Virus genome (UHGV): UHGV-0394577
DNA length: 11,770 nucleotides
From: a virus
Reading direction: 5' to 3' (one strand)
Shown here piece by piece: positions 1 to 11,770 of this stretch; the first letter of the stretch is position 1, and each line of letters opens with the position of its first letter. The notes under the pieces are model-generated. The model had not been told where the DNA came from. It saw only the letters and a program-made list of their open reading frames with translations, and made no database searches. A program made the translations under genes and the position numbers.

Positions 1-73
1 CACTTCAGGAAGATTTAACAAATCACTCAAAAAACGCAAAGACAGAACAGCACCAAGATATAAAGCGCTGGAG

Positions 74-274
74 ATGACAGAGCACGCCTTAAAGGTGGCT
101 ATAAAAGTGATAGACATCACAGCGGGAGAAGGATACGCGAAAGCACATCCCGAACTGATAAGCGCATTCATGACCACAGCGGCGGCAAACTTTGCCACGC
201 TGACAGAGCGGGAGATTGCCGAAGCGGAACAGGTAACAACCATCAACGTTAAAACCGGAGAGGTGAAATCATGA
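74..274 (+). CDS. hypothetical protein, possibly 5'-truncated by the window edge
   Basis: ORF track 66 aa. The same frame is open back to position 2, and the GGAG directly abuts the ATG at 74 (poor spacing), so the true start may lie upstream of the window. Stop overlaps the ssb start (ATGA). Confidence 0.4.
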   Translation: MTEHALKVAIKVIDITAGEGYAKAHPELISAFMTTAAANFATLTEREIAEAEQVTTINVKTGEVKS

Positions 275-2839: not shown

Positions 2840-3175
2840 ATGAACACTCCATACATTGAGTTATTTGCAGGCAGTCAGCAGGTATCAACGACGCTGGTAC
2901 ATTTTGCCGCTGATGCTGGCGTTATTCAGGAATTTACCCCGCTGATGCTGGTGGACAATGGCGAGTTTAAGCCGTGGGATGGTCAGGAATCTGGCAAGGC
3001 TGTTTATCTGACCTCGTACCCCGTGGACACGTCGACGCAGAAATCAGCACAGTGCTACAAGACGGGGATATTCAATATTGCCGCCGTTAACTGGCCTGAG
3101 AGCGTCGACACCGATGCGAAAAAATGCGCCGCCTTTGCGGGTTCTGGCGTATCCGTTCAGCCGCTGGCCCGATAA
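2840..3175 (+). CDS. head decoration protein, phage lambda gpD-like
   Basis: 111 aa (lambda D is about 110 aa); shared motifs TPLML, WDG, YKTGIF, WPE, AFAGSG; SD GGGGGAT. Gene order here is E then D, the reverse of lambda. Confidence 0.8.
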   Translation: MNTPYIELFAGSQQVSTTLVHFAADAGVIQEFTPLMLVDNGEFKPWDGQESGKAVYLTSYPVDTSTQKSAQCYKTGIFNIAAVNWPESVDTDAKKCAAFAGSGVSVQPLAR

Positions 3176-3631: not shown

Positions 3632-3698
3632 ACGGGTCCTTTCCGGCATATGGACCCGTTACGGGGCGGCGACCTCGCGCGTTTTCGCTATTTATGAG
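3631..3698 (+). other. lambda-type cos site (cos1): cosQ-like TACGGGTCCTTTCCGG, cosN GGGCGGCGACCT at 3664-3675, start of cosB
   Basis: TTTACGGGTCCTTTCCGG...GTTACGGGGCGGCGACCTCGCG.GTTTTCGCTATTTATGA matches the joined right and left ends of phage lambda DNA as recalled from memory; lies upstream of the Nu1-like gene as in lambda. Confidence 0.75.
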
Positions 3699-3808
3699 CC
3701 TTTTCGGGTTGGTGGTGGTGGTTTTGTTGTTCGCTCTATCTCCATGAATAAAAAGGGAAAGATAACACCAACACACCAACCTGAAGCATTAATTAAGTGG
3801 GGGTATTG

Positions 3809-4351
3809 ATGAAATCGCACCTGATGAACAAAAAAACTATGGCGCAAAGCTGCCGCGTAAGCGCCACTGCGTTCGATAAGTGGGGAGTAACTCCCGTTGA
3901 GCGTAAAGGCCGTGAGGCGTTTTATGATGTTGCTAGCGTGATAGACAATAGGGTTAACAATGCAATTAACCAGCTTACAAACGACAAAGGCGAGATTGAT
4001 GATGATGAACTTTTACGCGTAAGAATCAGATTAATGACGGCCCAGGCGGAAGCGCAGGAACTTAAAAACGAGCGCGAACGCGGCGAGGTGATTGATACAG
4101 AGTTTTGCATGTACGCGCTTTCAAAACTGGCAAGTCAGATTTCTTCAATCATGGACAGCCTCCCGCTTACTATGCAAAGGAACTTCCCACAGATGCCCCC
4201 CGCTATGCTGCATGGGCTTAAGAGGGAAGTAGTTAAAGCCTGTAATGCCAGTGCCAGAGTTGCCGACAACCTCCCACAGATACTGGCTGATTACTTGAAA
4301 GAAACAACCGGAAACGTACCGGAAAAGTTGCTACAGAAGAAAGGCGAGTAA
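3809..4351 (+). CDS. terminase small subunit, lambda Nu1-like
   Basis: Track ORF 3797..4351 begins at GTG; ATG 3809 follows a GGGGG SD. The middle and C-terminal regions resemble lambda Nu1 (RLMTAQAEAQELKNERERGEVIDTEFCMYALSKLASQISSIMDSLPLTMQRNFPQ; LKREVVKACNASA), while the N-terminal putative DNA-binding region is divergent. Confidence 0.85.
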   Translation: MKSHLMNKKTMAQSCRVSATAFDKWGVTPVERKGREAFYDVASVIDNRVNNAINQLTNDKGEIDDDELLRVRIRLMTAQAEAQELKNERERGEVIDTEFCMYALSKLASQISSIMDSLPLTMQRNFPQMPPAMLHGLKREVVKACNASARVADNLPQILADYLKETTGNVPEKLLQKKGE

Positions 4352-4380
4352 CAGACGCGCAATTATTGAACAAAAATGAG

Positions 4381-4441
4381 AAAGGATCTGATAATGGCAT
4401 TTTCTGGCTAAAATGCCTCGTGTCAGATCCTTTCTTTTTTT
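4381..4441 (+). terminator. compound hairpin + T-run: likely terS terminator and, on the opposite strand, the R-element hairpin of cos2 cosB
   Basis: AAAGGATCTGA...TCAGATCCTTT inverted repeat with nested GGCATTTT/AAATGCC stem, followed by T7; geometry mirrors the lambda cosB inverted R elements. Confidence 0.5.
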
Positions 4442-4472
4442 AATATTTTCATTGTTAAACAGTCTGTTACAG

Positions 4473-4571
4473 AGAAGAAGAACGGATCTGACTTTTGCCG
4501 GAAAATTTTCATAAACAGATAAAATCCGCGAGGTCGCCGCCCCGTAACGGGCCATAATTCCAGGAAGGACC
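4473..4571 (-). other. second lambda-type cos site in inverted orientation (cos2): cosQ-like, cosN (4531-4542, minus strand), R3-like CCGTTCTTCTTC
   Basis: Reverse complement reads CGGGTCCTTCC...CCGTTACGGGGCGGCGACCTCGCGGATTTT...TTTATGAAAATTTTCCGG...CCGTTCTTCTTC, matching lambda cos further into cosB than cos1 does. Confidence 0.7.
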
Positions 4572-4606
4572 CGACGACACCAGACTATCAGAACGATGGG
4601 GGCACA

Positions 4607-5385: not shown

Positions 5386-5468
5386 GTTTAAAAGTTGAAT
5401 CAGGAACATTCTTTTAAATCATTCAGTTACATGATCAATTAAACTACTCTCGTGCCGACCAAATTGCC

Positions 5469-5644: not shown

Positions 5645-5679
5645 TAAAACCCTGTTTTTTCGTGTGGAATCATAGACAT

Positions 5680-6921
5680 ATGGCGAGAAAAACAACCCAA
5701 TTAACCACAGTGCAGATCAAAGCAGCCAGGCCAGCGGAAAAGGAGTACACCCTACAGGACGGCGGGGGGCTTTTTCTCCTGGTCAAACCGTCCGGATCAA
5801 AACTCTGGAGATTTTCCTACTACCGACCATCGGACAAAAAAAGAATATTGCTGAGTTTTGGATCGCTTGAAGATGTTTCCCTGGCTGATGCCAGAAAACG
5901 CCGTAGCGAGTACAGGACGTTAATCAGTGCCGGAACTGACCCGCAGGACCACGAGAGGCAAAAAAGAGAGACAGAGGCCCGAAGACAAGGGAACACGTTC
6001 GAAAATGTGGCGGCGGCATGGTACCAGGTGAAAATCAGCCAGAATCTGGCCCCCAACACGATTAAAGACATCTGGAGATCGCTGGAAAAATATGTATTCC
6101 CGTTCATCGGTAACACGCCAATAGACACCCTGACCGCTCGCAGGTTTGTTGAGGTGCTTACCCCCATCAAGGAACGTGGCAACCTGGAAACACTCAAACG
6201 GGTTTTACAGCGAGTCAATGAAGTAATGGATTACGCCGCCAACAGTGGGCTGATCGATACCAATCCGGCTATGAATGTGCGTAAGGCGTTCCCCTCCCCT
6301 GTAAAAAAACATATGCCAACAATCCGCCCCGAGCAGTTGCCGGAGCTTATGCAGGCTTTATCAGTATCGGCAACAGAACGGCAGACCAGATTACTGATCG
6401 AATGGCAGTTACTGACCGTAACCCGTCCCGCCGAAGCGTCATCAACTCGGTGGGATGAAATCGACATGGACGCGAAGCGATGGACGATACCCGCCGGACG
6501 CATGAAGATGAGGCGTGATCACGTTATCCCGCTTTGTAGTCAGGCTATGGCGGTACTGGAGGCTATGAAACCAATCAGCCATCACCGCGATTACGTTTTC
6601 CCGAGCCTGAAAGACCCACGGCAGCCTATGAACAGCCAGACCGCAAACGCAGCATTGCGGCGGATGGGGTTTGGCGGGGTTCTGGTTTCTCACGGTATGC
6701 GCGCCATATTCAGCACCGCAGCGAACGAAGAAGGATTTGAGCCGGACGTAATAGAGGCCGCACTAGCCCACGTGGACACCAACGAAGTGAGACGGGCATA
6801 CAACCGGAGCAACTACATAGAAAAACGCATCGTGCTTATGCGCTGGTGGGGCGAATTTGTCGAGGCGGCGGCAACGGGCGTGACCCTTGCCAGTGGTAAA
6901 AGGGGTATTCGGGCCGTGTAG
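5680..6921 (+). CDS. int: tyrosine recombinase / integrase, P4-family
   Basis: Track ORF 5662..6921 begins at GTG; ATG at 5680 gives the N-terminus MARKTTQLTTVQIKAARPAEKEYTLQDGGGLFLLVKPSGSKLWRFSYY typical of P4-like integrases; C-terminal catalytic region with R...HVIPL...HGMR..F...A and a Y in RRAYNRSNY. Confidence 0.92.
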   Translation: MARKTTQLTTVQIKAARPAEKEYTLQDGGGLFLLVKPSGSKLWRFSYYRPSDKKRILLSFGSLEDVSLADARKRRSEYRTLISAGTDPQDHERQKRETEARRQGNTFENVAAAWYQVKISQNLAPNTIKDIWRSLEKYVFPFIGNTPIDTLTARRFVEVLTPIKERGNLETLKRVLQRVNEVMDYAANSGLIDTNPAMNVRKAFPSPVKKHMPTIRPEQLPELMQALSVSATERQTRLLIEWQLLTVTRPAEASSTRWDEIDMDAKRWTIPAGRMKMRRDHVIPLCSQAMAVLEAMKPISHHRDYVFPSLKDPRQPMNSQTANAALRRMGFGGVLVSHGMRAIFSTAANEEGFEPDVIEAALAHVDTNEVRRAYNRSNYIEKRIVLMRWWGEFVEAAATGVTLASGKRGIRAV

Positions 6922-7417: not shown

Positions 7418-7624
7418 ATGGAAGCAATCAAAAAAGTCATCTTTCGCCAGGAAGTAAAAAAACTTATCCACATCAAGGCAGACAGCACGCTGCAAAGCAT
7501 GATCAACGCCGGAGAATTCCCGCAGGGTTTTCGCGTTGGTTTACGCCGTCGAGGATGGTATGAGGATGACGTAATCGCCTGGATGAAAGAACGCGAACAG
7601 GAAGCACGCGGAACGGCTGCTTAA
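7418..7624 (+). CDS. alpA: AlpA/Vis-family phage regulatory protein (excisionase-like HTH)
   Basis: 68 aa; STLQSMINAGEFPQGFRVGLRRRGWYEDDVIAWMKER fits the AlpA-family pattern (FP, G.R..GW.E.EV..W); sits downstream of int as in P4-like and PICI elements. Confidence 0.75.
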   Translation: MEAIKKVIFRQEVKKLIHIKADSTLQSMINAGEFPQGFRVGLRRRGWYEDDVIAWMKEREQEARGTAA

Positions 7625-8192: not shown

Positions 8193-8235
8193 GTGGTCAC
8201 CTATTGAATTAGCCTTTCTATTGTTAGGTGACCAC
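8193..8235. promoter_or_regulatory. operator-like inverted repeat GTGGTCACCT-n23-AGGTGACCAC
   Basis: Perfect 10-bp inverted repeat; each half contains the palindromic GGTCACC/GGTGACC core; located at the 5' end of the RHH gene and upstream of the Ash/Icd operon. Confidence 0.4.
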
Positions 8236-8326
8236 CTTAACACAAGAGCACTTAAAAAAGCAAAGCCCCGCAAGTGTCATTACCACTCGCAGGGCTTCTA
8301 ACCAACAACGTAAACTAGGAGCCGTT

Positions 8327-8524
8327 ATGGTTGCCGTAAATCATATAACACACCTTGTACACACACAAACGGCCTTTGTGTGGCGTTTTCTGGCCCTGAG
8401 TGCCGGAGAATCTCAAATCATCCACGTAACCGCCTGGACGGAACGCGAAGCGCGTAGCCGTTGCCCGTCAGGTTGTGTTGCTGTATTTGCCGCTCGTATT
8501 CGTCAGGGGTCACATCATGCGTAA
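8327..8524 (+). CDS. Ash/Icd-like small protein (P4-type), short paralog
   Basis: 65 aa from ATG 8327 (SD TAGGAG), internal to track ORF 8228..8524. TAFVWRFLALS...VTAWTEREARSRCP...VFAARIRQG is paralogous to the C-terminus of the next ORF and resembles Ash/Icd-like proteins as recalled from memory. Confidence 0.5.
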   Translation: MVAVNHITHLVHTQTAFVWRFLALSAGESQIIHVTAWTEREARSRCPSGCVAVFAARIRQGSHHA

Positions 8525-8984
8525 AAACCGCTTGCAAAAAATTATAACGGGGCTGTATGCTTCCCCCGTCGCCCACATGGCGACCGGGTTTGACAGCCTG
8601 AATACTGTAGCGGACAGCCGCTTACATTCCGATATGCGGTTTTTTTGTGTCCGTAAACCTACCCATACCCGCATTATGGCGGGGCGTAACGGGGGAGCCT
8701 TTGCGCTCGCTGGTTCCTACAGTACCAGTCTGTCAACCCTGTTACGTCTCGCCACCATGTTTGACAGCGTAGTAGCGAGACTCCTTAAAATTACTGTAGG
8801 AGCCTTTCACATGGCTGTATCCGCACGCCCTTACTTTGTCTGGCGCTTTATGCAGTGCCACCACAGCAGCATTGATGTATTCACCGTTACCGCAGCCACT
8901 GAACGCGAAGCACGCGCCCAGCTGCCGCACGCACATCTGATTTTTGTCGCCCGTATTCGTCAGGGGAAAACCTATGCACAATAA
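8517..8984 (+). CDS. Ash-family-like protein, long paralog
   Basis: 155 aa from ATG 8517 (SD AGGGGT); start overlaps the previous stop (ATGCGTAA); C-terminus YFVWRFMQC...VTAATEREARAQLP...IFVARIRQG is homologous to the upstream ORF. Confidence 0.5.
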   Translation: MRKNRLQKIITGLYASPVAHMATGFDSLNTVADSRLHSDMRFFCVRKPTHTRIMAGRNGGAFALAGSYSTSLSTLLRLATMFDSVVARLLKITVGAFHMAVSARPYFVWRFMQCHHSSIDVFTVTAATEREARAQLPHAHLIFVARIRQGKTYAQ

Positions 8985-9195
8985 AACCACACCGGACGCA
9001 GCAGCTGCCGCACTCACTACGCTGATGCACGCACTTATTGATATTGAATGCACAGCAGGGATTGCACAAAAGGAAGAACGGGAAGAATACACATTGTTCG
9101 CCCTGGAATGTATCCGATACACCGCTACGCGGTCGCTGAATGACGCTAAAAATATTCTTATTGCTGATTGTAAAAATGGCGGTGGTTATGCGTGA
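8974..9195 (+). CDS. hypothetical protein (73 aa)
   Basis: ATG 8974 with AGGGGAA SD; overlaps the upstream stop; Ala-rich N-terminus. Confidence 0.45.
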   Translation: MHNKTTPDAAAAALTTLMHALIDIECTAGIAQKEEREEYTLFALECIRYTATRSLNDAKNILIADCKNGGGYA

Positions 9196-9421
9196 TATTT
9201 ACCACGAAACAATATACCGCGCATTTCTTGCACTTTCTCACAGTGAAAATATGTTGGAAATATTGCGCATATGGCTTGAAACACTTGGCGACAATGAATG
9301 CGACAAACAAAAATCAAGAATTGTCACGGCATTAATAACGCTTCTTGAGCCTGTAATAATGGAACTGCAAGAAATAGACCTATTGCACGACAGATATAAA
9401 GAACAGCACACCGGAGAATAA
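9188..9421 (+). CDS. hypothetical protein (77 aa)
   Basis: ATG 9188 overlapping the upstream stop (ATGCGTGA); internal to track ORF 9140..9421. Confidence 0.45.
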   Translation: MRDIYHETIYRAFLALSHSENMLEILRIWLETLGDNECDKQKSRIVTALITLLEPVIMELQEIDLLHDRYKEQHTGE

Positions 9422-9426
9422 AAATA

Positions 9427-9726
9427 ATGAAACTTAAATATCCTGGCTTAACTGCCAGCGGCAAAACTCGCACTAAATTCATGTGCGGGGATATTTACCG
9501 CGATAAGTACGGCGGCACGGTAATGATTAAGAGCGTGGAGGAACGGCGCGTAACTTACCGTCGTGAAGGCTACCAATATGATTGCGTGATGCCTGTTTAT
9601 CAGTTCGAACGTGATTTTTCTCTTGTGCAGGCCGTACCGCGTAACGTGCCCACCAGCAGGGAGAAAGCACGCGCCAATATTCAGGAAATAAGAAAGATGT
9701 TGAACGTATTCAGGGGTAAAAAATGA
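9427..9726 (+). CDS. hypothetical protein (99 aa)
   Basis: ATG 9427 with GGAG 10 nt upstream; stop overlaps the primase start (ATGA). Confidence 0.5.
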   Translation: MKLKYPGLTASGKTRTKFMCGDIYRDKYGGTVMIKSVEERRVTYRREGYQYDCVMPVYQFERDFSLVQAVPRNVPTSREKARANIQEIRKMLNVFRGKK

Positions 9727-11477
9727 AACTTGCACCGAACGTAAAACAGCAGTCACGCGGCATAAAACACAAAGGAACAGAAGTCATTATTTTTGCGGGT
9801 AGTGATGCCTGGTCACACGCTAAACAATGGCAGGAACATGACGCGCGTATGGCCGGAGATAATGAGCCTCCTGTGTGGCTTGGGGATCAGCAGTTATCCG
9901 AACTGGATAAGCTGCAAATTGTGCCGGAAGGCCGAAAATCAGTACGCATATTCAGGGCCGGACATCTTGAACCTGTAATGATAAAGGCGATTGGTCAGAA
10001 GCTGGCGGCGGCAGGTGTACAGGATGCAAATTTTTACCCTGAGGGAATGCACGTTCAGGAGGTGGAGAACTGGCGCGAATATCTGGCCCGTGAGCGCCAG
10101 AATCTTTCTGAAGGTCTGTTCGTTGAGCTTCCGGTAAAGCAAAAGGCGCAACTTTCGCAGATGGCGGACAGTGAACGCGCTCAGCTGCTTTCCGATCGCT
10201 TTGATGGCGTTTGCGTACATCCTGAAAGTGAAATCGTTCACGTATGGCGCGGCGGGGTATGGTGTCCGGTCAGCACAATGGAACTTAGCCGCGAAATGGT
10301 GGCGATCTATTCAGAGCACAGGGCCACTTTCAGCAAGCGCGTAATCAATAACGCCGTTGAAGCGTTAAAAGTTATTGCCGAACCAATGGGCGAGCCGTCC
10401 GGCGATTTGTTGCCGTTCGCCAATGGTGCGCTTGACCTGAAAACGGGGGAATTTTCCCCGCACACGCCGGAGAACTGGATCACCACGCACAACGGTATTG
10501 AGTACACGCCACCAGCACCAGGGGAGAACATCCGCGATAACGCGCCAAATTTTCATAAATGGCTTGAGCACGCAGCCGGAAAAGACCCGCGCAAGATGAT
10601 GCGTATATGTGCCGCGCTGTACATGATTATGGCGAACCGGTACGACTGGCAGATGTTTATTGAGGCCACCGGAGACGGCGGAAGCGGTAAAAGTACATTC
10701 ACGCATATAGCCAGCCTTCTGGCAGGGAAACAGAACACGGTAAGCGCTGAAATGACCTCACTTGATGATGCTGGTGGACGTGCGCAGGTTGTCGGGAGTC
10801 GTCTTATCGTCCTGGCTGACCAGCCGAAATATACAGGCGAAGGAACGGGCATCAAGAAAATCACGGGCGGCGACCCCGTGGAAATTAACCCGAAATATGA
10901 AAAGCGTTTCACGGCGGTAATCAGGGCGGTGGTGCTGACGACCAACAACAACCCGATGATATTCACCGAACGGGCCGGAGGCGTGGCACGTCGTCGGGTT
11001 ATTTTTCGCTTTGACAATATCGTTAGCGAGGCAGAAAAGGACAAGGATTTGCCGGAGAAGGTCGCGGCTGAAATCCCTGTGATTATCCGCCGATTACTGG
11101 CGAACTTTGCCGACCCTGAAAAGGCCCGGGCTTTACTCCTGGAACAGCGCGACGGTGATGAAGCACTGGCAATAAAGCAACAGACGGATCCGGTTATTGA
11201 GTTTTGCCAGTTCCTGAATTTTCTGGAGGAAGCGCGCGGCCTGATGATGGGTGGCGGTGGCGATTCAGTGAAGTACACGACCAGGAACAGCCTTTACCGC
11301 GTCTATCTGGCGTTTATGGCGTACGCAGGCAGGAGCAAACCGCTAAACGTAAATGACTTTGGCAAGGCTATGAAGCCCGCTGCAAAAGTTTACGGACATG
11401 AATATATTACGCGGAAAGTTAAGGGAGTAACGCAGACTAACGCAATAACAACAGACGATTGTGACGCGTTTTTATAA
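9723..11477 (+). CDS. P4-alpha-like primase/helicase replication protein (SF3 helicase domain)
   Basis: 584 aa; Walker A GDGGSGKST, Walker B-like LIVLAD, later VVLTTNN motif; architecture typical of P4-family/PICI primase-helicase; iteron origin immediately downstream. Confidence 0.88.
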   Translation: MKLAPNVKQQSRGIKHKGTEVIIFAGSDAWSHAKQWQEHDARMAGDNEPPVWLGDQQLSELDKLQIVPEGRKSVRIFRAGHLEPVMIKAIGQKLAAAGVQDANFYPEGMHVQEVENWREYLARERQNLSEGLFVELPVKQKAQLSQMADSERAQLLSDRFDGVCVHPESEIVHVWRGGVWCPVSTMELSREMVAIYSEHRATFSKRVINNAVEALKVIAEPMGEPSGDLLPFANGALDLKTGEFSPHTPENWITTHNGIEYTPPAPGENIRDNAPNFHKWLEHAAGKDPRKMMRICAALYMIMANRYDWQMFIEATGDGGSGKSTFTHIASLLAGKQNTVSAEMTSLDDAGGRAQVVGSRLIVLADQPKYTGEGTGIKKITGGDPVEINPKYEKRFTAVIRAVVLTTNNNPMIFTERAGGVARRRVIFRFDNIVSEAEKDKDLPEKVAAEIPVIIRRLLANFADPEKARALLLEQRDGDEALAIKQQTDPVIEFCQFLNFLEEARGLMMGGGGDSVKYTTRNSLYRVYLAFMAYAGRSKPLNVNDFGKAMKPAAKVYGHEYITRKVKGVTQTNAITTDDCDAFL

Positions 11478-11491
11478 TTTTTTGCAATGGC

Positions 11492-11718
11492 TGTCTACCC
11501 TGTCTACCTGAGTAAAGGAAAATACATTTAATTCAGTATATTAAGTTAGGTAGATAGCCTTTTTTCCCTTGTCTACCTGCTGTCTACCCTCTCTACCTGA
11601 TTTTACCTGAACCAGAAAGGGAGGTAGATACGGGTAGATAGTGAATAAAAGCACTCTACCCCGCTGAAAGCCGCGCCATTACTGGAATGGGGGCCAGCAA
11701 GGTAGATAAGGTAGACAA
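11492..11718. repeat. replication origin iterons (TGTCTACC / GGTAGATA, about 11 copies in both orientations)
   Basis: Direct copies at 11492, 11501, 11571, 11581 and 11590 (degenerate TCTCTACC); inverted copies at 11549, 11623, 11633, 11701 and 11711; 9-10 bp phasing within clusters; similar to the P4 ori/crr type I iteron TGTTCACC as recalled from memory. Confidence 0.7.
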
Positions 11719-11770
11719 GGGGAGGCACAACTCAAAACTTTTTAAACGAGGGGGTAAAAATAAATATGCA

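Follow-up and report, generated by a model that had tools for sequence, protein, structure and literature searches.

Between the replication gene pri-rep and the next small gene of the virus genome UHGV-0394577 lies a gap of about 290 bp, and the question raised by this locus is what that gap does. The window, which here means the whole 11,770-nucleotide stretch that was analysed, is a circularly permuted complete 11.77-kb phage-inducible chromosomal island (PICI) and a close relative of the island EcCICFT073, which serves as the prototype of PICIs in Gram-negative bacteria. An initial annotation had proposed the repeats in the gap as the replication origin (ori) of the element, bound by the C-terminal domain of the preceding protein. 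This proposal stands: positions 11486-11720 are very probably the single vegetative replication origin of an EcCICFT073-type PICI. The origin is an ordinary one, because that of a near-identical sister island has already been described and functionally tested.

The iteron array and the tested origin of EcCICFT073

The pri-rep stop codon ends at 11477, the iterons occupy 11492-11717 and the next ATG stands at 11766, which agrees with the earlier statement that the iterons directly follow the replication gene. The hexamer TCTACC occurs 11 times, all of them confined to 222 bp (11494-11715), and is found nowhere else in the 11,770-bp window; in window-wide shuffles (n = 200) the mean was 2.83 copies and the maximum 7, with 0/200 reaching 11. 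Both the count of "about eleven" and the presence of both orientations are borne out by these mapped copies. The 8-bp form TGTCTACC has five exact copies, all within 11492-11717, where 0.2 would be expected across the window, and with at most one mismatch it has 10 copies in the iteron region and 6 scattered over the rest of the window. Read along the + strand, with start-to-start distances in bp, the order of the iterons is + +(9) -(46) +(23) +(11) +(9) -(31) -(10) +(22) -(46) -(9). Adjacent like-oriented copies are spaced 9-11 bp, about one helical turn, and the measured values of 9, 11, 9, 10 and 9 bear out the 9-10 bp phasing first reported. The features of the region are as follows (fractions refer to the 59 spacers compared in the next section).

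11492-11508, + strand: iterons 1 and 2 (TGTCTACC, TGTCTACC), direct, 9 bp apart; cores exact in 59/59 and 58/59
11509-11548, no strand: A+T-rich spacer, presumed DNA unwinding element from its GC minimum and duplex stability
11549-11556, - strand: iteron 3 (TATCTACC on the - strand), inverted relative to iterons 1-2
11570-11597, + strand: iterons 4-6 (TGTCTACC, TGTCTACC, TCTCTACC), direct, 11 and 9 bp apart
11602-11608: degenerate seventh direct copy, TTTTACC, beside iterons 4-6
11623-11640, - strand: iterons 7-8 (TATCTACC twice), 10 bp apart; cores exact in 57/59
11653-11660, + strand: iteron 9 (ACTCTACC), direct; mean column conservation 0.94
11664-11685, no strand: conserved non-iteron block CTGAAAGCCGCGCCATTACTGG, in the G+C-rich spacer between iterons 9 and 10
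11701-11717, - strand: iterons 10-11 (TATCTACC, TGTCTACC), 9 bp apart
11734-11765, + strand: invariant block AAAACTTTTTAAAC with the Shine-Dalgarno sequence GAGGGGG, translation start region of the next gene

The A+T-rich DNA reported between the iterons was also recovered, and most clearly between iterons 2 and 3, where the 40 bp of 11509-11548 contain 80% A+T against 51% in the window and form the GC minimum (22.5%). The least stable 40-bp duplex of the element, calculated from nearest-neighbour energies, is 11518-11557 (rank 1 of 11770, z 3.4), which overlaps this spacer and lies between inverted iterons. On the right-hand side, iterons 9-11 are the mirror image of iterons 1-3.

The function of EcCICFT073 at this place has been studied by plasmid maintenance. 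The region directly 3' of the initiator gene was described as the PICI origin, and the Fig. 2a legend of the same study defines a PICI ori as an A+T-rich region flanked by short iterons in two sets (Fillol-Salom et al., 2018, ISME J; PMC6092414). The window fits this definition, with iterons 1-2 and iterons 3-6 on either side of 11509-11548. A temperature-sensitive plasmid carrying the EcCICFT073 pri-rep gene together with the presumed ori gave colonies at 44 C, whereas the rep mutant plasmid gave zero colonies (PMC6092414). When the primers of the supplement were mapped on CFT073, the "delta-ori" reverse primer was found to end four bases past the pri-rep stop codon, and the "pri-ori" reverse primer to anneal at the first bases of the next open reading frame (ORF); the printed primer differs from the genome by one base. 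Therefore, the published "ori" is exactly the spacer homologous to window 11478-11765, and the pri-ori, pri-delta-ori and delta-pri-ori plasmids differ by exactly the 288-bp spacer or the gene.

The tested island, which we located in the CFT073 genome at L014 32931-43655, has its genes arranged as in the window island: int, an alpA-like gene, DUF4222, pri-rep, the 288-bp spacer, a small ORF, ssb, perC, and the capsid and decoration genes. DNA identity over window 9187-11769, which includes pri-rep and the ori, is 93.9%, and 569/584 residues of Pri-Rep are identical; all differences come before residue 474, and the last 111 residues are the same. The 288-bp spacer of CFT073 carries the same eleven TCTACC at the same places, with a few substitutions in the stretches between them; the two islands also differ in their accessory modules. 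The cloning test proposed with the initial annotation has thus in essence already been carried out on the orthologue.

The gap itself offers little room for a gene. No + strand ORF of at least 20 amino acids (aa) is found in 11478-11765. The initial annotation had named a coding role of the iterons in related elements as a result that would tell against an origin; the matching region carries no annotation in the 30 listed E. coli records (of 564 matched). Three - strand ORFs (24-41 aa) in the iteron region were rejected as genes, since they are spread over the repeats and the variable spacers. No DnaA box (TTATNCACA), IHF consensus or GATC is present in the iteron region, the sole near match being one DnaA-like site with one mismatch at 11640, and no oriC-type 13-mers or Fis sites of note were seen there. 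No Rfam family reached its gathering score in the region; matches to microRNA hairpins at a lax threshold were discarded as spurious, being far below the cut-off and caused by the inverted iterons. Single-strand folding of the region is strongly favourable (z -4.9), which we read as a by-product of the inverted iterons and not as evidence for an RNA.

The same position could also suit a regulatory site. The repeats might be mainly operators through which Pri-Rep or another island protein controls transcription of the ssb-perC-capsid genes, with replication starting elsewhere or depending on the helper. The region does lie between two co-directional genes with no terminator-like site, a strictly conserved block stands just upstream of the next start codon, and plasmid initiators that bind iterons often autoregulate. 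However, the promoter and terminator scan of the region gave nothing above chance and no + strand promoter-like site, and the gene and spacer suffice to maintain a plasmid; a purely regulatory role is unlikely for these two reasons. The least stable duplex between inverted iterons and the architecture of a P4 ori core, described below, also speak against it. A role of this kind in place of an origin is improbable in our judgement, and a regulatory side role is compatible with the origin.

Conservation of the iterons and of the initiator that would read them

Two sets of related spacers were aligned. The first comprises 11 Escherichia coli or Shigella variants, with spacers down to about 75% identity, and in it the invariant columns number 54/66 within the iteron cores and 37/177 outside them (Fisher p 3e-18). 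The second, with IMG/VR contigs, holds 59 distinct spacers whose identity to the window is 60% at the lowest, with 70% as the median; these sequences are related and not independent trials, and at least four lineages are represented. In the second set 7 of the 11 cores are exact in at least 54/59 spacers, for example at 11583 (54/59), 11592 (57/59) and 11710 (57/59), and most spacers hold 10 or 11 copies. Fewer exact cores at the remaining four positions are due to slight shifts in the alignment and to one E. coli lineage in which a pair of inverted copies takes the place of iteron 3, against one inverted and one direct copy in the window. Just 5' of the hexamer, two bases differ freely among the 59 sequences (TG, TA, TC, AC, CC, CA), and therefore the conserved unit is TCTACC: the repeat array of the initial annotation stands, but its unit is 6 bp and not 8 bp long. 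The sequence of the A+T spacer drifts in relatives, with its length and A+T richness kept.

Two conserved stretches are not iterons. The CTGAAAGCCGCGCCATTACTGG block at 11664-11685 is conserved as strongly as the iterons in the 11 and in the 59 sequences, and relatives with another iteron type lack it; the scans gave no promoter, terminator or RNA family there. The AAAACTTTTTAAAC block upstream of the next start codon is invariant in the alignments.

The protein encoded next to the array has three parts, namely a TOPRIM-like N-terminal domain (residues 1-140), a D5_N/superfamily 3 (SF3) helicase and a C-terminal origin-binding domain.

9723-11477, + strand: pri-rep (584 aa), initiator-helicase
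11184-11450, + strand: codons of the winged-helix origin-binding domain (residues 488-576), from 1KA8 and Pfam Pox_D5

Pfam matches of Pri-Rep are D5_N, DUF5906 and Pox_D5, and with the model TIGR01613 "phage/plasmid primase, P4 family" the protein reached 108.6 bits, marginally short of the 108.7-bit cut-off. In BLASTP, residues 141-573 align with residues 324-756 of the P4 alpha protein (40% identity over 434 residues, E 1e-111); residues 174-432 have their counterpart in the SaPI5 PriRep helicase 7OLA (E 1.8e-15), SaPI standing for Staphylococcus aureus pathogenicity island. The P4 alpha origin-binding domain, 1KA8, was matched by residues 488-576 in phmmer (E 1.1e-6), and this winged-helix domain is the presumed reader of the iterons. 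The first 140 residues match neither the P4 alpha primase domain (EGYATA), nor any Pfam family, nor any PDB sequence. Therefore, the initial naming of the protein as an alpha-like primase/helicase holds in part: "alpha-like" fits the helicase and C-terminal domains (40% identity, 1KA8) but not for the N-terminal 140 residues, and "helicase" is sound while "primase" is unproven, because these residues have no match to the P4 primase domain. The "primase" in the name Pri-Rep rests on annotation transfer.

If the C-terminal domain reads the iterons, the two should change together. Variants that keep TCTACC have almost the same last 110 residues of Pri-Rep. The searches differed in what they could tell about co-variation: a full-length protein search returned only proteins at least 97% identical, which are uninformative here; a species-level genome scan gave three loci, two of them informative; and a scan of viral contigs gave 80 loci, all at least 95% identical, which were used for spacer conservation only. 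A megablast of 9700-11770 against the phage collection gave no match. More distant islands with another iteron are the following (Pri-Rep identity to the window protein).

L011, Serratia aquatilis island: Pri-Rep 54%, iteron CTGTTCAC
L012, Morganella morganii island: Pri-Rep 52%, iteron TGTTCAT
L016, induced satellite vB_KppS-Ant: Pri-Rep 41%, iteron TGTTCACC
L099, E. coli island: Pri-Rep 54%, iteron CTGTTCACC

All four have their repeats in the same position as the window, with TGTTCAC(C/T)-type iterons and full-length alpha-like proteins, and in the C-terminal domain L011 and L012 share about 32% identity with the window protein. The satellite, the Serratia island and the E. coli island L099 share one order: two direct, an A+T spacer, one inverted, three direct, two or three inverted, one direct, a spacer and two inverted iterons. 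The Morganella island keeps both ends, with a second direct triplet in place of the inverted pair of the others. Between spacers the iteron types are mutually exclusive (three counted loci).

Natural domain swaps show which part of the module the iteron follows. In the E. coli O157:H7 island L097, DUF4222 is 89% identical to that of the window and residues 1-163 of the replication protein are 79% identical, after which a DUF927-type helicase follows; its spacer has eleven TAACCCGCA and no TCTACC. In L098, with DUF4222 at 67% and the N-terminal domain at 64%, the helicase is of the RepA family, and the repeats are AAGTGGG, again with no TCTACC. Therefore, the iteron type follows the helicase/C-terminal part and not DUF4222 or the N-terminal domain.

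From these data the following mechanism can be proposed. Pri-Rep, homologous to phage P4 alpha in its helicase and origin-binding parts, would act as a hexameric SF3 helicase, and its C-terminal winged-helix domain would read the hexamer TCTACC. Tandem iterons 9-11 bp apart would put several protomers on one face of the DNA, and the opposed iteron sets flanking 11509-11548 would cause the duplex to open there by distortion without ATP. The P4 alpha helicase and the SaPI Rep proteins load themselves without DnaA, DnaB or DnaC; Pri-Rep may likewise self-load at the spacer without these three proteins and unwind 3' to 5'. The right-hand iterons 7-11 probably steady the complex or load a second hexamer, like the cis replication region (crr) for P4. 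Priming may occur through the TOPRIM-like N-terminal domain or host DnaG, and the island's own single-stranded DNA-binding protein (SSB), encoded two genes downstream, would coat the strands.

Several points weigh against this picture of the origin or narrow it. In the published test, deletion of the ori gave significantly fewer colonies, not zero (PMC6092414). What that test shows is the requirement for the spacer in cis and for the gene, both in the CFT073 orthologue and not in the window sequence itself. We infer from homology and co-variation that Pri-Rep would read TCTACC, and divergence of the islands as wholes could explain part of that co-variation, although the domain swaps speak against it. 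The start of DNA synthesis is likewise placed by inference and not by mapping. As for priming, the sequence read alongside a model has FAGSDAW at the place of the TOPRIM EGxxD motif, with no canonical glutamate, and has no DxD; since both are missing and no Pfam or PDB match exists, self-priming by Pri-Rep appears doubtful.

Likeness to P4, SaPIs and iteron plasmids

The closest architecture outside the PICIs is that of P4, whose alpha protein is homologous to the window initiator over the helicase and the origin-binding domain, and whose iterons, like those of the window, are 6-8 bp long. In the P4 record, crr occupies 4291-4590, immediately after the 3' end of alpha, and the ori iterons are placed at 9310-9413, about 4.7 kb away, whereas the window has a single contiguous iteron cluster directly 3' of the gene. 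Taken in the direction of the initiator gene, the P4 ori core runs + +(10) -(43) +(22) +(11) +(10) and the window + +(9) -(46) +(23) +(11) +(9); the order and the gene-relative orientation of iterons 1-6 are the same, and the spacings agree within 3 bp. The A+T-rich spacer after the first pair is 35 bp long in the P4 ori and 40 bp in the window. The P4 crr unit ends with + (43) - -(9), and iterons 9-11 of the window are + (46) - -(9); in the window this right-hand spacer is G+C-rich and strictly conserved, unlike in P4. The window origin therefore looks like a P4 ori-type half beside a crr-type half.

The sequences read by the two proteins are different. The P4 iteron is TGTTCACC and that of the window TCTACC, and neither occurs in the origin of the other (in the window region GTTCAC 0, TCTACC 11), although TGTTCACC is present in other E. 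coli and Klebsiella-type islands, L099 and L016. P4 alpha carries the EGYATA primase domain, in contrast to the unrelated 140-aa N-terminal domain of the window protein, and the type II repeats of P4 are not found in the window origin.

The P4 arrangement suggests another explanation, that the region is a crr-like enhancer acting in cis and that the true ori lies elsewhere, unrecognised. In its favour, P4 has crr, not ori, as the iteron cluster next to the 3' end of alpha, and iterons 9-11 look like a crr unit, with one + copy and then, 43-46 bp on, two - copies 9 bp apart. However, the complete circular element has no other TCTACC, and a role as crr only is unlikely because it has no other iteron cluster; in addition, iterons 1-6 are those of the P4 ori core and not of crr, and the plasmid test used the gene and spacer alone. 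We consider this explanation highly improbable and retain the array as the origin itself.

The match between P4 and the window argues, at the level of protein homology and architecture, for a common replicon type. This is unlike the published view, in which P4 and PICIs evolved independently and the organisation of the PICI origin was called unique (PMC6092414). One may go further and regard the EcCICFT073-type origin as a contiguous version of the separate ori and crr of P4, both belonging to one replicon family with swappable pairs of iteron and winged helix; we put this forward tentatively, at slightly less than even chances.

In SaPIs, which are Gram-positive PICIs, the ori consists of six to twelve iterons directly 3' of rep, with a central A+T-rich region and, on each side of it, at least two iterons, the two sides being opposed in direction, and the C-terminal winged helix of Rep binds the iterons, the protein being self-loading and loader-free (PMC9371898). 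The window has this layout, with 11 iterons, of which iterons 1-2 (+) stand to the left of the spacer, iteron 3 (-) to the right and the inverted iterons 7-8 further on. Homology between SaPI5 PriRep (7OLA) and the window protein is confined to the helicase core, and the iteron sequences are unrelated. With iteron plasmids that use a winged-helix Rep, the window shares direct sites about one helical turn apart beside an A+T-rich unwinding element. It differs from them in that the initiator is itself an SF3 helicase, the iterons are 6 bp long and in both orientations, and there is no DnaA box or IHF site.

The host island and what its origin means

In a near-identical chromosomal copy, L001, window position 11770 runs on into window position 1, and the ends of this island meet at about window 5447-5463 (att core), overlapping the 3' end of a tRNA-Pro gene. 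The form seen in the window looks like the excised or circularised island. The hallmarks of a PICI are found in it: an integrase, an AlpA-like regulator, main genes all on the + strand, an 11.77-kb circle and two cosN sites. Gram-negative islands are transcribed one way (PMC6092414). The genes and sites around the origin are listed below.

9427-9726: DUF4222 gene, directly before pri-rep
11766-11770 then window 1-274, + strand: 92-aa ORF (phrog_1231), putative, from the coding sequence given by the Prokaryotic Genome Annotation Pipeline (PGAP) in L001 and from translation
271-681: the island's own SSB (phrog_44), followed by a PerC-like ORF
1773-2828: homologue of the lambda major capsid protein E
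2840-3175: homologue of the lambda decoration protein D
3664-3675 (+) and 4531-4542 (-): cosN, exact lambda type (GGGCGGCGACCT), inverted and flanking the Nu1-like gene
3797-4351: Nu1-like small terminase
5662-6921: integrase
7418-7624: AlpA/excisionase-like ORF, followed by small ORFs and then DUF4222

The gene start that had been proposed at the right edge (ATG at 11766 after GAGGGGG) is genuine: it is that of the 92-aa PGAP coding sequence of L001, and, the window being a circular permutation, the rest of the ORF lies at window 1-274. In the E. coli genomes L005-L008, PGAP starts this small ORF about 60 bp after the conserved ATG preceded by GAGGGGG; the late start in several genomes gives an apparent intergenic gap of about 350 bp instead of about 290 bp.

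Compared with EcCICFT073, only the window island has two inverted cosN sites with a Nu1-like small terminase gene between them, and window 3706-4497 has no similarity to CFT073. The window island is inserted at tRNA-Pro and the CFT073 island between roxA and phoQ. The counterparts of the capsid and decoration genes in EcCICFT073, c1499 and c1500, were tested to see whether they take part in interference with phage lambda (PMC6092414).

The terminase brings up a last explanation of the iterons, as a packaging signal in which the small subunit binds an array like lambda cosB or pac. The island encodes a Nu1-like small terminase, and small terminases bind repeated sites. On the other hand, two exact lambda-type cosN sites stand at 3664 and 4531, 4-7 kb from the iterons. 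The two cos sites of EcCICFT073 were genetically mapped as separate elements, and that island, which has the same iterons, is reported to have no TerS homologue (PMC6092414). A packaging role of the array is scarcely credible, and an origin is still preferred. One more cosN-like sequence, the third, has a single mismatch (GGGCGGCGACCC) and is located at 10865-10876 inside pri-rep; matches of this stringency are at chance level.

Two Rfam matches lie upstream of the replication genes, a C4 antisense RNA (71.7 bits) with its a1/b1 target element (46.8 bits), at 8555-8604 and 8672-8759 (+). The module sits between two Icd-like small ORFs, at 8228-8524 and about 8812-8984, an arrangement which we take to recall the immI region (c4-icd) of phage P1. 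It is missing from EcCICFT073 and from the near-identical L001, and it may provide an RNA-based control upstream of the replication genes of the PICI.

The practical value of the finding lies in annotation, as the gap of about 290 bp is left blank in the matching E. coli records inspected, which come from a standard pipeline. To the published origin it adds the 6-bp core, the domain-swap co-variation series, the parallel with P4 ori and crr, and the doubt whether the N-terminal domain is a primase. The islands form a clean natural domain-swap series in which the iteron type tracks the helicase/C-terminal module. A Pri-Rep with no recognisable primase catalytic domain bears on how such islands are primed. 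The match with P4 ori and crr bears on a shared replicon ancestry of P4-like satellites and PICIs; if it is true, crr would be the detached right arm of an ancestral single origin, an idea that can be tested.

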